Below the pieces are notes generated by a model, which had not been told where the DNA came from, did not search any database, and worked only from the letters and a program-made list of their open reading frames with translations. 55,775 nucleotides of DNA. It comes from Verrucomicrobiota bacterium. GTDB lineage: Bacteria; Verrucomicrobiota; Verrucomicrobiia; Limisphaerales; SIBE01. Shown here piece by piece: positions 13,337 to 17,354 of the stretch. Position 1 is the first letter of the stretch, and every line of letters starts with the position of its first letter. The stretch is from positions 1 to 55,775 of the forward strand of contig JAQBVM010000003.1 in assembly GCA_027623095.1 (NCBI GenBank), written 5' to 3'. The translations under genes and the position numbers were made by a program.

Positions 13337-15361
13337 CTATCGCCTCGGCAATCGCCATTTCTCATCAAAGAATCCGGCATTCGCAATGCCGCCCGGCGCC
13401 CGGGAGGAAACAGGAACGCTCAAGTCCACAATGGCCCAGTCGGGCAGCTTGGCGATCTGCCGCGCGTTGTTCAGATAGTCGTATTCGCGGAATGTAAAAC
13501 CGCTGTTCAACACGACATATCGTTCCGGGTTCAGCGGATTCGGATAAACCAACACAGGCACATAACGATCCACCGGGAAGATTGCGTCGCCTGTGTGAAC
13601 GCCTTGGCTGTCCCAGCGAATCGGGAGCTTGTTCGCGATCTTCGAGAGCAGCACGTTGCTTTGCGGATCTCCCCATAAAATTAGGTTGTGCGCGGCGATA
13701 TCTTCCTCTGTGATTTCGATGTCCTTCTTGACGCGGGCTTCACCGCGAAATTGGTTCCGCCAATGCGTGATTGCGTGTGCCTGCTCAGAAGCTGTCCAGG
13801 CACCGACTTTTTCGTTCAGCGGCGTTCCGGTTGGAACCACCATCAAGAAAGAATCCATAAATGCGTCGTCGATTGGACCCTGTAGTCCGTGACGTTTGGA
13901 CAATTCAACGCCTGCCTCGCGTTTTTCGGATACTGCCCACTGGCCATTCGTCTTCCTGAAATGCGCGGTCCAGGACCGATCAGAAAGCACGCCGGGAGCG
14001 GCAATCGGTTGACCGTCAAGTGCAACAAGCGGCTTAGCGGTTGTGTCCAGCGGACAAAGCCCGGGTGGCATCGACAAGGTGAGCGCGGAAACGTTCTGGG
14101 TGTCCACTTTCACAGATTGATTATCCGTGATTTCAGCGTTCACGCGCGCACGTTCCCAATGTTGGTCCAACCCATCGACTGTCACCCAGAGCATCTTGTT
14201 GTACCGAAGTGTCCAGGTCGTAAAACGCACTTTGCGGGGAATTGGATCCCGCCCGACCGCGGCGATGTTATCAATCCGCCGGTCCAATTCATTCTTCGTT
14301 TCCGGATGATACCGGTGCGCCGTCTGTGGTCCGATGAGGTGTGTGAGTTCAATCCCTTCCTCGGCGAGCGCTTTTGCCATCATGTCGGCGGCCTGTTTCT
14401 GGCGGTCGATCTCGCCGCTGTAGGCGACCGTGGGGCAGTTGAAAAGATTGGCCGCGTAGTCCGTGCAATCATACCAGTGCCAAAGCTTCTGTTCGTACCA
14501 CGGGGGTTGCACGTTTTCTTGCTGAAAAACTTTTAAGAAATCGGCCGTCTCCGAGAACCCGGCGCCAGGCGCTGCCGCGGCCCACAGCCCGGCATAATGC
14601 ACGGCGAATTGCCAGCACGCCGCGCCTCCCATCGAAAAGCCGCGCACAATCAGCCGGTTGTCATCGATTGGATAGTGTTTTTGAACATTTTCGAGCGCCT
14701 CCAGCAAATCGATTTCCCCCGCGAATTTGTTCGCGTTGCAGTAGCGGCCGTACAAATGCAGGACAAACGCGTTATCCGGTGTGAACTGACCCGGCGAAGT
14801 CTCGCGTCCATTGATGAAATCTAATTCCGTCAGCGTTTCGCCCCGACCGTGAAACCAAGCATCCAGCCGGAACCGGTGCGGGGAATTCGGTTGATACGAC
14901 GCCGGAATCACAAGCCCATACGGCTGTACGGAACCGTCGATTTTGGATACGTATCCGCGGGCGACCAAACCCGTTGCTGTGGTCCACGGCGCGGTCCCAC
15001 CTTTGAGTTGCGCCGCGCGCTCCATTCCCTGCTGCAGCAACCGTTTCGCGATTTTGACCTGATTTGTCTTGTAGAATTCGTCGTAAGCCAGCGCGTAACG
15101 GACGGCATTATGATAGATCCGCACGTCTGGCAGAAGGTTCAACAACTCCGGTTTTGATTTCAGGCCATCTTCTGTCGCCTTGATCTCCAGTCCCAGAGCC
15201 CGAACGAGTGAATCTAATTCCGACCGATCCTGATCGGAAATTGTCAGGCCCGGCGGTGGCACAGGGCGCACTTTGTCGGGAAGATTATCCGCGGGTCCAT
15301 CCGCAAGGAGAATCGATGCGACAAAGGGAGTGAGAACCAGGAAAAAGGAACGTGCGTTCAT
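13337..15361 (-). CDS. Secreted alpha/beta hydrolase (prolyl oligopeptidase/esterase-like)
   Basis: GFSMGG; signal peptide MNARSFFLVLTPFVASILLA; colinear paralog of 8463-10541. Confidence 0.85.
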   Translation of the reverse strand: MNARSFFLVLTPFVASILLADGPADNLPDKVRPVPPPGLTISDQDRSELDSLVRALGLEIKATEDGLKSKPELLNLLPDVRIYHNAVRYALAYDEFYKTNQVKIAKRLLQQGMERAAQLKGGTAPWTTATGLVARGYVSKIDGSVQPYGLVIPASYQPNSPHRFRLDAWFHGRGETLTELDFINGRETSPGQFTPDNAFVLHLYGRYCNANKFAGEIDLLEALENVQKHYPIDDNRLIVRGFSMGGAACWQFAVHYAGLWAAAAPGAGFSETADFLKVFQQENVQPPWYEQKLWHWYDCTDYAANLFNCPTVAYSGEIDRQKQAADMMAKALAEEGIELTHLIGPQTAHRYHPETKNELDRRIDNIAAVGRDPIPRKVRFTTWTLRYNKMLWVTVDGLDQHWERARVNAEITDNQSVKVDTQNVSALTLSMPPGLCPLDTTAKPLVALDGQPIAAPGVLSDRSWTAHFRKTNGQWAVSEKREAGVELSKRHGLQGPIDDAFMDSFLMVVPTGTPLNEKVGAWTASEQAHAITHWRNQFRGEARVKKDIEITEEDIAAHNLILWGDPQSNVLLSKIANKLPIRWDSQGVHTGDAIFPVDRYVPVLVYPNPLNPERYVVLNSGFTFREYDYLNNARQIAKLPDWAIVDLSVPVSSRAPGGIANAGFFDEKWRLPRR

Positions 15362-15543
15362 AGGTGCGAAGTCTGGTAGGTTAAAAGTGACGGATTTGCA
15401 AGACACATAAAGAAGACACATAAAGAAGTCACTGCTCCTAGAAAAACTCCCGCAGTGATAAAGGGGTCTTGACTAGCCCTGTCGCAACGTCGCGCCTCGC
15501 CAGGGACCCTCCAAACCAGCAATGCCAGCATTGAAATAATCTG

Positions 15544-15579
15544 GACAAATTCATGTCGTATGTGCGACATGAATTTGTC
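15544..15579. repeat. 36-bp near-perfect palindrome upstream of the PaaX-like gene
   Basis: GACAAATTCATGTCGTAT|GTGCGACATGAATTTGTC; 16/18 pairs, both mismatches are T:G. Confidence 0.9.
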
Positions 15580-15615
15580 TCGAGGTCGCAAACGAGGTTT
15601 TTCACTTTTAAGGTT

Positions 15616-16410
15616 ATGAATTCTAAGACCCAGGAACTCCTAAATCTGCTGCTGTGGTCCGCCGACATGCTGATGCGGCCCACATTTCGTAATCTTACCG
15701 ATTCGTATGAAAGCTGGGCTTATCACAATGGATTGGAGAAGCAATTGGCGAGGTTGGAGCAGCGCCGGTTAATTCAGCGTGATGCTGGCTCGCCGATGGA
15801 TCGAGTCTATCGATTGTCCGCGCAGGGGCGGTTGCAAGCTCTGGGTGGCCGCGATCCCCAAGAGCGCTGGGGGCGGTCGTGGGACGGACAATGGCGGATG
15901 GTGATTTTTGATGTGCCCGCCAAACGAAACAGTCACCGCGAACGGATCCGGCGTTACCTCCGCGGCAAATGCTTTGGCTGCCTTCAATATAGCGTCTGGA
16001 TCACACCTGATCCGCTGGAAGAAGAACGGCACATTCTCGTTGGGGGAAAGATCGAAGTGGAATCGCTTCTATTGCTGGAGGCAAGGCCTTGCGCGGGAGA
16101 GTCGGACTCGGAGATCGTCGCGGGCGCGTGGGATTTCGAACGTATCAACAGCCGCTACGCGAGGCATCTGAAAATCCTCGACGAGCGACCGGCCGGTGCT
16201 CTGCGTAACGATTTGTCAGCGAAAATGCTCCTGCGCTGGGCGGCGGAAGAGCGCGGAGCCTGGCTCAATGCCGTTTCCAATGATCCGCTCCTGCCAGAAA
16301 GGATCTTGCCGCTCGATTACCTCGGAAAGTCGGCGTGGCAACGTCGGACGGAGATGTTTCAAGAGGCCGGACGCCAAATGCAGACATTTACGCGAAACAA
16401 GCACAAATGA
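15616..16410 (+). CDS. PaaX-family protein (winged helix + Cas2-like central domain + PaaX_C)
   Basis: LARLEQRRLI..VYRLSAQG (wHTH), WDGQWRMVIFDVP..RERIRRYL..FGCLQYSVWITP, AWDFERINSRY, DPLLPERILPLDYLG; ATG at 15616 preferred because 15553 lies inside the palindrome. Confidence 0.88.
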   Translation: MNSKTQELLNLLLWSADMLMRPTFRNLTDSYESWAYHNGLEKQLARLEQRRLIQRDAGSPMDRVYRLSAQGRLQALGGRDPQERWGRSWDGQWRMVIFDVPAKRNSHRERIRRYLRGKCFGCLQYSVWITPDPLEEERHILVGGKIEVESLLLLEARPCAGESDSEIVAGAWDFERINSRYARHLKILDERPAGALRNDLSAKMLLRWAAEERGAWLNAVSNDPLLPERILPLDYLGKSAWQRRTEMFQEAGRQMQTFTRNKHK

Positions 16411-16412
16411 GG

Positions 16413-16454
16413 GAGGACAGTTTTATGTCGCACGTGCGACATAAAACTGTCCTC
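16413..16454. repeat. 42-bp perfect palindrome immediately downstream of the PaaX-like gene
   Basis: GAGGACAGTTTTATGTCGCAC|GTGCGACATAAAACTGTCCTC; no loop; separated from the stop codon by 2 bp. Confidence 0.95.
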
Positions 16455-16586
16455 GAAATCTGCGGGAGATCAAGAGCGGAATCCTCTACCCCGTCCGCGA
16501 TGTTGTTGCGCAAGCCGATGGGAGCCCGGTCTAGAACCAGGCAGCCGTGGGGGAACCAAAACCAACCGTTCTTGAGGCGACTGGAT

Positions 16587-17354
16587 TCAATGAAGGTCCA
16601 GCCGCTTCACACGGATGTTGCGGTAGCGCACGAACTCCTTTGTGTGATCGCCGCCGCCATGTACTTGCAAAGCAATTCCGCCTTTCGCGGGATGGCGCAC
16701 TTCGGTCTCTTTCCATTCCATAATCCGAACGCCATTGATCCAGGTGGTGATGTGTGGAGGGTTGTTCACAATTCGCGCCCGGAGTTCGTTCCATTCGCCA
16801 TGCCGCCAGAAGAGCGGCCACGAATCCTCTAGAACAGGCAGCGGATACGGCGCGGGAACGGACGTTATCTCGGTCACTTTCTCGCCGAACCGGAAATTGG
16901 CAACGCTCGGTTTGCCGCCCAAACCTTCGCCATACACTCCCATGAGGTTTCCGTTCGCGTGGTAATCCACCATCGCTTGCCAGGCTTTGCCGTCCTCCGT
17001 GCTGCGAAGAAAGAGACCGCTGTCCGGTCCGAAATCGTTCTTCATCTCAAGAACCACTTCAAAGTCGCCGAATTGTTCGTCCGTAATAACAATTCCTCCG
17101 TTTCCGGGAATATCCTGGCTCCCGATGATCGCGCCGTCCTCAATCACCCACTTTCCGCCGGTCTTATTCCCACTGGAACGGCTATGACCTGTCTTTCCGC
17201 TGATATGCCAGCCGTGGAGCGTCTTGCCATCGAAGATCGAAACGAAACCCTCATCTTTCGCGCGTCCATCAAACTGGAAGGCGGTCAAAAGAATAGCTGC
17301 GCTTAGACCAAATGCTTGAGACTTTCTAGAGGGAAATCTAAATTTCTGATTCAT
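16587..17354 (-). CDS. DUF1080 (3-keto-disaccharide hydrolase-like) protein
   Basis: FVSIFDGKTLHGW, WVIEDGAI, FGDFEV, DSGLFLR, GEWNE, GGIALQVH, VRYRNIRVKRL. Confidence 0.9.
   Translation of the reverse strand: MNQKFRFPSRKSQAFGLSAAILLTAFQFDGRAKDEGFVSIFDGKTLHGWHISGKTGHSRSSGNKTGGKWVIEDGAIIGSQDIPGNGGIVITDEQFGDFEVVLEMKNDFGPDSGLFLRSTEDGKAWQAMVDYHANGNLMGVYGEGLGGKPSVANFRFGEKVTEITSVPAPYPLPVLEDSWPLFWRHGEWNELRARIVNNPPHITTWINGVRIMEWKETEVRHPAKGGIALQVHGGGDHTKEFVRYRNIRVKRLDLH

Follow-up and report, generated by a model that had tools for sequence, protein, structure and literature searches.

A family of palindrome-bounded cassettes around a PaaX-like gene, found mainly in Verrucomicrobiota

Introduction

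Why should a gene from a family of transcriptional repressors lie between two long palindromes that share the same core, and what is such an arrangement for? The question is raised by a locus of a Verrucomicrobiota bacterium in contig JAQBVM010000003.1 (assembly GCA_027623095.1), of which we analyzed positions 1 to 55,775 of the forward strand; this 55,775-nucleotide stretch is referred to below as the window. A gene for a 264-aa PaaX-family protein (15616..16410, plus strand) is preceded by the palindrome P_L (15543..15579) and followed by the palindrome P_R (16413..16454), neither of which has a strand of its own. We find that the locus is a member of a large family of discrete ~0.92-kb palindrome-gene-palindrome cassettes that occur mainly in Verrucomicrobiota. 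Related palindromes are dispersed as solo copies, and we lean towards the view that cassette and solos form a selfish partnership resembling that of repetitive extragenic palindromes (REPs) and their REP-associated tyrosine transposases (RAYTs).

Results

Two palindromes with a common core enclose the gene

The 37-nt copy of P_L reads GGACA-N6-TGTCG-TATGTG-CGACA-N6-TGTC. Its 15-nt arms (15544-15558 and 15565-15579) are 100% complementary and are separated by a 6-nt centre, and P_L ends 36 bp ahead of the ATG at 15616. P_R starts 2 bp past the TGA (16408-16410) and is a perfect 42-bp palindrome, with 21-nt arms that are 100% complementary and a spacer of 0 nt. The core of P_R is identical to that of P_L; this 18-nt sequence, ATGTCGYAYGTGCGACAT, had no other copy in the window, with 0.00 expected from 100 shuffles. 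The 37-nt copies of the two palindromes are 78% identical and their arm differences are mirrored. A first-pass annotation of this DNA had described the palindrome geometry, the shared core and the mirrored differences, and all of these were reproduced by our sequence analysis; only its ATG position, 15617, was one base off.

Read as a duplex, the palindrome has the form GGACA-N6-TGTCG-N6-CGACA-N6-TGTCC, which contains four 5-mer half-sites with an exact 11-bp period and places the outer pair 28 bp apart. When folded as single-stranded DNA, P_L reached -16.8 kcal/mol (z -9.1) and P_R -21.9 kcal/mol (z -10.4), and 0 of 200 shuffles did as well.

The layout recurs across homologs

We checked homologs for palindromes on both sides of the gene, defining a palindrome as a pair of arms of at least 12 nt with at most 1 mismatch and searching 110 bp upstream and 60 bp downstream. 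The set comprised 160 loci, 80 from species-representative genomes and 80 from metagenomes. Among the genome loci a palindrome was present upstream in 62/78, downstream in 53/77 and on both sides in 43/75, while elsewhere in these sequences 39 were found in 399,443 bp, several of them from the same palindrome family. The metagenome loci gave similar counts (upstream 56/76, downstream 49/75, both 36/71; 18 elsewhere in 237,937 bp). Pooled, 118 of 154 loci had the upstream and 102 of 152 the downstream palindrome, relative to a background of ~0.02 per equal stretch. In the genomes of relatives, 10 full-length homologs with both flanks available were palindromic on both sides and 5 more on one. 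The gap between upstream palindrome and start codon is mostly 35-40 bp, and that between stop codon and downstream palindrome at most ~15 bp.

The sequence itself varies. Cores of TGTCG, TGTTG, TGTCC, TGTCT and TGATT and centres of CATATG, CACCTG, CACGTG and CGTACG were found among homologs, each palindrome being internally symmetric. Over 109 aligned palindromes 75.8% of cells were paired, compared with 62.8% in shuffles (0/500 reached the observed value); the covariation score was 0.418 as against at most 0.151 with slid partners, and double changes were seen in 23 of 24 pairs. G-T pairs were almost unused in the core, which argues for DNA palindromy rather than RNA pairing. These comparisons point to a symmetry that is conserved above sequence and to Watson-Crick palindromy of DNA, not an RNA structure.

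At three metagenome loci, L155 (2501-3600), L170 (568-1563) and L171 (1774-2769), matches to the 260-aa protein extend over 996-1100 bp, compared with the usual ~780 bp, which suggests an insertion of 216-320 bp within the gene.

Homology between cassettes ends at the palindromes

We compared 83 pairs of loci whose cassettes were 85% or more identical in DNA sequence and whose flanks extended for 1.5 kb or more on either side. The alignment stopped at about -70 and at +35 to +55, i.e., at the outer palindrome edges, in 61 of the 83. Of these bounded pairs, 34 had no other similarity within 3 kb on either side, and the remaining 27 had an extra match only farther downstream, which in the example examined (L057) was a UbiD-family gene. 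Cassettes that are 85-93% identical thus occur in unrelated contexts.

Five metagenome runs from two studies matched the stretch in the window essentially unchanged. In two runs contig ends fall within P_R, and a separate 42-bp contig identical to it has 2-3 times the depth, as would be expected of a genomic repeat. We also looked for an empty site between the neighbouring peptidase and DUF1080 genes and found one in a close relative, roughly 90-95% identical, on a single 791-bp contig of depth 6 (run X7, from a third study). This contig covers 15313-15519 and 16566-17100 (with 21 and 26 differing letters, respectively), and its joint, 15519->16566, skips 1046 letters. The segment absent from this allele (15520..16565, no strand) consists of 24 bp, the cassette and 111 bp, so that the region upstream of the peptidase gene joins the 3' flank of the DUF1080 gene directly, with neither a cassette nor a solo palindrome. 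Imperfect direct repeats of 8-10 bp (CCAAACCA / CCAAAACCAA) lie at the borders of the missing segment. Since an empty-site allele exists, the gene is not syntenically fixed. A second joint, 15579->17017 in run X5 (one side of 21 letters), is regarded as an artefact of repeats. The peptidase and DUF1080 genes have orthologs in three related genomes (G001, G002 and G004; 70-81% identity), and the neighbours of these orthologs differ in every genome.

We compared the arms of P_L and P_R over 79 loci for an attL/attR-like reciprocal or a duplication-like parallel relationship, and no model was a clear winner: mismatches numbered 700 for self-symmetric, 762 for parallel and 789 for reciprocal arms, and the best model per locus was reciprocal in 12, parallel in 21 and self-symmetric in 31. 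The asymmetric centres of P_L and P_R flip freely, and since their orientation is mixed among loci a simple duplication origin of the two palindromes is unsupported. A search of plasmids and phages found the cassette on none, giving two distant actinomycete PaaX-like matches and zero phage matches.

Palindromes are dispersed in the source genome and its relatives

The assembly of the source genome itself (G000, 7.4 Mb) contains a 16-nt core with at most 1 mismatch in 32 places, 31 of which have full palindromic arms; a reversed control pattern had 0 matches. Two of the 31 flank the PaaX-like gene, which is single copy by tblastn, and 29 lie elsewhere. Of the copies in this genome, 17-18 are embedded in one larger conserved element of ~80-170 bp, beside another 54-bp repeat module, and ~8 are bare solo palindromes whose arms vary from copy to copy. 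The genes beside the palindromes are diverse. By crude gene calls at 18 sites (plus-strand matches only), 7 were tandem, 6 convergent, 2 divergent, 1 apparently intragenic and 2 at contig ends. The palindromes are not confined to promoters: 6 of the 15 classifiable sites in these crude calls sit between convergent genes. A search for empty copies of the composite repeat found none, flank-only matches being those expected by chance.

In the relative G001, one gene is accompanied by 36 palindrome copies of its type, which fall into two arm subtypes equal to the two cassette ends. Another relative, G016, carries four paralogs; the palindromes flanking each are of a distinct type, and solos of every one of the four types are present. 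The positions of solos are not conserved: at 4/4 palindrome loci of G001 with a syntenic counterpart in the source genome, the latter has no palindrome. Around these solos identity is 70-75% in the coding flanks, and intergenic DNA could not be aligned, which left the exact insertion borders unreadable. One G016 solo (L044) retains ~75 bp of the cassette 3' end; the other G016 solos examined are mostly bare palindromes, with short extra matches in L053 and L055 only, and the G001 solos are likewise mostly bare. Comparison of L044 with the same-genus genome G041 gave 81% identity on one flank only.

Several further repeats were observed in these genomes. The ~54-bp module of the source genome begins with GGTTCATGG and ends with CCATGAAC, and gave 40 strand-hits (e.g., C25:4518-4571, C38:6120-6173 and C41:6415-6468); the 9-mer GGTTCATGG occurs 225 times, and the palindrome-bearing composite elements usually abut the module. 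G001 has doublets of palindromes 180-320 bp apart (C35:13799/13988, C47:10691/10926, C56:199/477, C109:8387/8707, C133:56085/56404 and C153:6069/6249), some with opposite centre orientation and reminiscent of REPIN-like pairs; the inner sequence of the C35 and C47 doublets has almost no likeness to the cassette interior. Another palindrome, TGTTCCACGTGGAACA, occurs 1-4 times per genome with or without the PaaX-like gene and is often paired 100-1300 bp apart (G024:C6:28689 and 28800; G021:C6:155535 and 156435; G001:C84:69887 and 70693); it probably serves an unrelated conserved regulator as operator. Y1_Tnp genes are also found in the source genome, for example at C271:4393-4731, C49:8561-8902 and C293:3778-4113.

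Gene and palindromes co-occur across genomes

The gene was detected in 13 of 41 genomes of relatives and in 36 of 151 from a sample of the whole order, scattered over many families, and some genomes carry 2-4 diverged copies. Among 54 gene matches, 6 have in-frame stops and ~13 are internal fragments. Identity is discordant with taxonomy, being 56% within the same genus and 75% to a member of another family. At least 10 copies of a generic core pattern were present in 15 of 36 genomes with the gene as compared to 2 of 115 without it (Fisher p = 3e-9; related genomes are not independent). Counted genome-wide, the stand-alone palindrome is indeed a dispersed repeat, yet one that is tied to PaaX-like genes across genomes.

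A PaaX-family protein with a Cas2-like middle domain

The protein matched Pfam PaaX_M (PF20803) with 62.7 bits against a gathering cut-off of 24 (E 3.6e-17), PaaX_C weakly, and missed the NCBIfam PaaX equivalog TIGR02277 (57.8 bits against a cut-off of 264.55). By these sequence matches it belongs to the PaaX family but is no true PaaX, the repressor of the phenylacetate catabolon. One source names members of the palindrome-flanked subfamily 'phenylacetic acid degradation operon negative regulatory protein' or 'DNA-binding transcriptional regulator PaaX'. This naming is wrong for the subfamily, because the equivalog cut-off is widely missed and paa genes are not adjacent.

An AlphaFold2 model built from a 96-sequence alignment had a pLDDT of 89.3 and a pTM of 0.82 and was used in place of an earlier model from 19 sequences, which was poor (pLDDT 68.2). 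The modelled parts are a winged helix (~1-85), a beta-alpha-beta-beta-alpha-beta unit (~93-156) and a helical C-domain; along the gene we assign a winged helix-turn-helix (wHTH) to residues ~1-85, a Cas2-like ferredoxin domain to ~89-160 and a helical PaaX_C-like part to ~164-263. Foldseek ranks 1-5 were all PaaX-family structures (E 2.4e-8 to 1.5e-3). The best matches were E. coli PaaX (8a39), Rv0674 (3kfw) and 3l09, followed by many Cas2 chains and VapD, and the Cas2 chains align to the middle domain with a TM-score of 0.54-0.62 on the target. A sequence profile also retrieved 8a39 (E 1.6e-9) and 3kfw. Hidden Markov models (HMMs) of Cas2 from three libraries matched residues 93-132 weakly, all below the cut-off (PF09827, 20.9 against 23.8; TIGR01573, 17 against 24.5; PADLOC Cas2, E 0.0014).

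Across 96 diverse sequences W89, R108, G121, Q124 and W128 are invariant. D99, in the motif FD[VIL]P just past strand 93-98 (beta-1), is kept in at least 90% of them; E. coli PaaX and Rv0674, as aligned, have no Asp at this position.

Residues of helix alpha-1 vary together with the palindrome core

We ranked the alignment columns of 135 cassettes by their information on two variable core bases. The most informative residues were 109, 103, 88, 228, 69 and 106, of which 103, 106 and 109 share one face of helix alpha-1 in the Cas2-like domain. The combination G-A-E at 103/106/109 went with a TGT-TG-C core in 49/49 loci, T-S-A with CG in 12/14, A-S-T with CC in 6/6 and A-S-V with CT in 4/4. The outer arm tracks residue 2 and the winged-helix residues 46, 49, 57 and 58. 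On a tree built without the informative columns the core class changes 12 times, with only 2 well-supported independent contrasts, so that the co-variation of protein and palindrome across cassettes is suggestive but not proven.

Surroundings of the cassette

The two adjacent genes lie on the minus strand and encode a peptidase S9-like protein and a 3-keto-disaccharide hydrolase of the DUF1080 type; further genes nearby encode TatD and a tetratricopeptide repeat (TPR) protein. None of these neighbours, to which the search for paa genes was confined, is a paa gene, and homologs of the cassette gene have diverse flanks. The Pfam annotation agrees with the earlier description of the neighbours as unrelated, on the other strand and free of phenylacetate genes. 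The gene had also been called an orphan, which is apt with regard to paa genes but not with regard to its family, since the PaaX-like family is large (367 clusters at 50% identity, E<=1e-30). A promoter consensus scan of 15350-16650 found no sigma-70-like site, and an Rfam search returned no family, one sub-threshold miRNA match being judged chance. Upstream of the peptidase gene, 15400-15425 is a perfect 13-bp tandem duplication (AAGACACATAAAG twice), and the unit is single copy in contigs of metagenome runs X2, X5 and X7.

At some other loci a gene of a TOTE-like conflict system (AEP primase, ResIII helicase and DUF559) lies head to head with the cassette, as at L104:3-2891 (minus strand). 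The gene was also found at L117, L126, L124 (frameshifted) and L116 (internal deletion). A third palindrome is translated in frame within a loop of the helicase domain of the TOTE-like protein and co-varies with the cassette palindromes (orthologs 75-88% identical).

Discussion

The anatomy of the cassette, its conservation, its discrete boundaries, one empty site, the dispersal of the palindromes and their co-occurrence with the gene are what an explanation has to account for. The reading that we favour, with a probability of roughly 55%, is that cassette and solos constitute a selfish partnership resembling REP/RAYT, centred on a DNA-binding, Cas2-like protein and not on a known transposase. 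The protein would bind, as a dimer, tetramer or higher oligomer, the 36-44 bp palindromes at the gene ends and the scattered solos. Its winged helices may read the outer arms (GGACA...TGTCC, 28 bp apart), with a Cas2-like dimer placed over the centre through helix alpha-1. The co-variation of protein and palindrome and the PaaX operator geometry both suggest such binding. Since the site shares the operator geometry of E. coli PaaX, the protein could be expected to bind as a dimer or tetramer and to repress itself, and occupancy of P_L would probably shut off its own gene.

The partnership would go beyond a repressor because a second full site abuts the stop codon, homology ends at the sites, solos are unconserved between congeners, and gene and palindromes co-occur. 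Together these four features are, by analogy, the signature of a REP/RAYT-type selfish gene-plus-repeat partnership. We infer that the protein is needed for the spread of the palindromes. The unit is gained and lost and lies in unrelated contexts, each protein variant goes with a distinct palindrome variant, and high palindrome counts are almost confined to gene-bearing genomes. Symmetry extends to 44-62 bp, with arms that differ among copies served by one protein, and these long symmetric arms, together with the freely flipping centres, suggest a role for hairpin or cruciform forms or for copying from arm to arm. That the PaaX-like protein itself cuts and joins through its Cas2-like domain is a tentative idea which we consider somewhat doubtful, the alternative being host recombination or another enzyme. 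It is decidedly unlikely, in our estimate, that the cassettes are a new class of autonomous mobile element, in which a wHTH-Cas2-like protein works without DDE, HUH, serine, tyrosine or Cas1 chemistry. In such an element the Asp of the Cas2-like dimer, as a metal-binding residue, would nick or resolve palindrome hairpins or cruciforms and so spread both solos and the palindrome-bounded gene. The first-pass annotation had proposed a self-contained ~0.9-kb cassette similar to RAYT-REP but with another protein fold; the flanking palindromes, the empty site and the gene-tied dispersed repeat are in line with this, while binding of the ends, a hairpin rather than a duplex substrate, and movement by the protein go further than these observations. 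Its alternative, an autoregulatory DNA loop, may hold alongside the cassette reading.

Several results weigh against the partnership. After phylogenetic correction only 2 well-supported independent contrasts remain, and the co-variation is not statistically established. Every Cas2 HMM match falls below its cut-off, and Pfam and NCBIfam scans of the protein found no transposase, recombinase or HUH domain, Y1_Tnp included. About 19 of the 83 locus pairs are plainly syntenic, and in some groups the cassette has been inherited vertically within 6 kb of synteny. The cassette is not accompanied by a partner gene, homology ending at the palindromes. The empty site is not a clean excision, since it also lacks the 24 and 111 bp beyond the palindromes and retains no solo; it rests on one depth-6 contig at 90% likeness, and gain is indistinguishable from loss. 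Neither a target-site duplication nor a precise insertion polymorphism of a solo was demonstrated, the relatives being too diverged for intergenic alignment. Among the 36 gene-bearing genomes 21 have fewer than 10 pattern copies, some of them with palindromes that the pattern cannot match; the source genome is counted among these 21, its main variant being missed by the generic pattern. Conversely, G132 (30 copies) and G150 (38 copies) have no PaaX-like gene at E<=1e-10, where the palindromes may have outlived the gene or a ~1-kb cassette contig may have been dropped during binning of the metagenome-assembled genome.

An ordinary autoregulated PaaX-family repressor would account for part of the data, with P_L serving autoregulation, P_R and distant sites serving looping or roadblocks, and the ~30 dispersed copies being operators; the look of a cassette would then reflect a small regulator gene that is transferred horizontally and often lost. 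A known repressor has the same fold and belongs to the same family, P_L lies at a fixed 35-40 bp from the start codon, the 11-bp period of the half-sites suits binding to one face of the duplex, and the 38-bp site has the geometry of a PaaX operator, autorepression by PaaX being documented in the portion of PMC9493321 on which we draw. Five syntenic loci add to this, as they have three cognate sites around the divergent TOTE-like gene in a three-operator-like layout, which looks like the work of a plain regulator, at least as a secondary use, and counts against a selfish partnership. On this account a regulon should be conserved between congeners, yet 4/4 syntenic loci differ; many sites lie between convergent genes (6/15 in the source genome by crude calls), and 17-18 copies there belong to one larger repeated element rather than to diverse promoters. 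Perfect symmetry over 44-62 bp with varying arms exceeds a protein footprint, a full second site at the stop codon (102/152 loci) has no known precedent in PaaX regulation, and homology between cassettes ends exactly at the palindromes. We regard a simple repressor as rather unlikely.

The palindromes might instead be an independent REP-like family moved by other machinery, such as an IS200/RAYT-like Y1 transposase or host recombination at hairpins, with the PaaX-like gene as a captured or host-side binder (e.g., a silencer or protector of hairpins) and not the mobiliser. This is very unlikely in our judgement, although the source genome has 24 Y1_Tnp matches above the Pfam cut-off, G132 and G150 carry 30 and 38 palindromes with the gene not detected, and no recombinase chemistry can be recognised in the protein; the part of PMC3733652 cited here moreover documents both intragenic REPs and REP families that have no transposase of their own. 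Of the 24 Y1_Tnp genes a single one lies within 1.5 kb of a palindrome and none is flanked, and neither a GTAG nor a CGTC tag is present on the palindromes. Every protein variant is paired with a palindrome variant of its own, even among the four paralogs in one genome (G016); a trans-acting transposase that sets the specificity fits poorly with this. Purely structural hairpins, i.e., terminators or insulators that are alike by chance and whose dispersal is unlinked to the protein, would explain why both palindromes fold very stably and why a consensus scan calls both terminator-like on the minus strand. That scan gave 2 sites against 1.5 expected in shuffles, the strand of the gene itself has no T-run, and core G-T pairs are essentially unused, against selection on RNA; with co-variation and genome-level co-occurrence left unexplained, such hairpins are an extremely improbable answer.

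In the cassettes the genomic pattern of REP/RAYT surrounds a repressor-family protein with a Cas2-like core, and it is widespread. Were the protein only to bind, a transcription-factor-like gene and its sites would be spreading as one selfish module and would offer a ready set of orthogonal pairs of protein and 38-bp operator, with an apparent code relating residues 103/106/109 to the core bases. Were it also to cut, the chemistry would be new to mobile elements and the protein a free-living relative of Cas2; a Cas2-fold mobile-element nuclease, if true, would bear on the origin of the CRISPR adaptation module. Our literature search, with subscription journals and supplements outside its scope, returned no paper in which PaaX-family proteins are connected with a Cas2-like nuclease function or with dispersed palindromes.

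Comparison with known systems

The site of E. coli PaaX is TGATTC(N27)GAATCA, and PaaX represses its own promoter, according to the part of PMC9493321 that we cite. The cassette protein shares its family and fold, and the palindromic site is of similar size (~38-39 bp) with outer half-sites 27-28 bp apart; unlike PaaX, the cassette has a full site after the stop codon, ~29 dispersed copies, no adjacent paa genes and a conserved Asp in FD[VIL]P.

In Cas2 the Asp at the end of beta-1 is catalytic, and the middle domain of the cassette protein is likewise a predicted beta-alpha-beta-beta-alpha-beta unit with an Asp at the end of beta-1. In CRISPR a new spacer lies between two copies of a partly palindromic repeat, just as the cassette gene lies between palindromes of 36-42 bp. 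Unlike cas2, the cassette is apparently not linked to cas1 or a CRISPR array, as judged from cassette homology ending at the palindromes (no dedicated cas1 or array search was made).

Insertion sequences of the IS200/IS605 type and their derivatives resembling miniature inverted-repeat transposable elements have hairpin ends, small size and short non-autonomous copies in common with the cassettes; in the source genome 17-18 palindromes belong to the larger repeated element of ~80-170 bp. The cassettes differ in having no TnpA or TnpB, in having one full kind of palindrome at both ends in place of distinct left and right hairpins, and in that no target motif or duplication was found for them. 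The dif/pdif modules and lox-like sites have inverted arms around a 6-bp centre, and a gene can lie between two such sites. The cassette similarly has one gene between two sites, with the 6-bp centre as the only part that is allowed asymmetry; it differs in having no linked tyrosine recombinase and in giving no signal in the reciprocal-arm test.

REP/RAYT, which relies on an HUH transposase, has so far been the textbook example of a single-copy gene accompanied by dispersed palindromes of its own. As in a REPtron, a low-copy gene is flanked on both sides by cognate palindromes of 20-40 bp, and further copies, single or paired and numbering in the tens, are scattered mainly through intergenic DNA, with an occasional one inside a gene; several gene/palindrome families can share a genome and their distribution is patchy. 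Unlike in a REPtron, the cassette protein combines a wHTH, a Cas2-like domain and PaaX_C and is not an HUH/Y1 transposase, and its palindromes, which number in the tens and not the hundreds, are longer, near-perfect and often loopless. The copies listed also have no GTAG/CGTC tag, a feature that we take, with the REP and RAYT definitions, from the cited part of PMC3733652. The pattern is thus nearest to that of a REPtron, yet it fails the protein and tag features by which a REPtron is defined.

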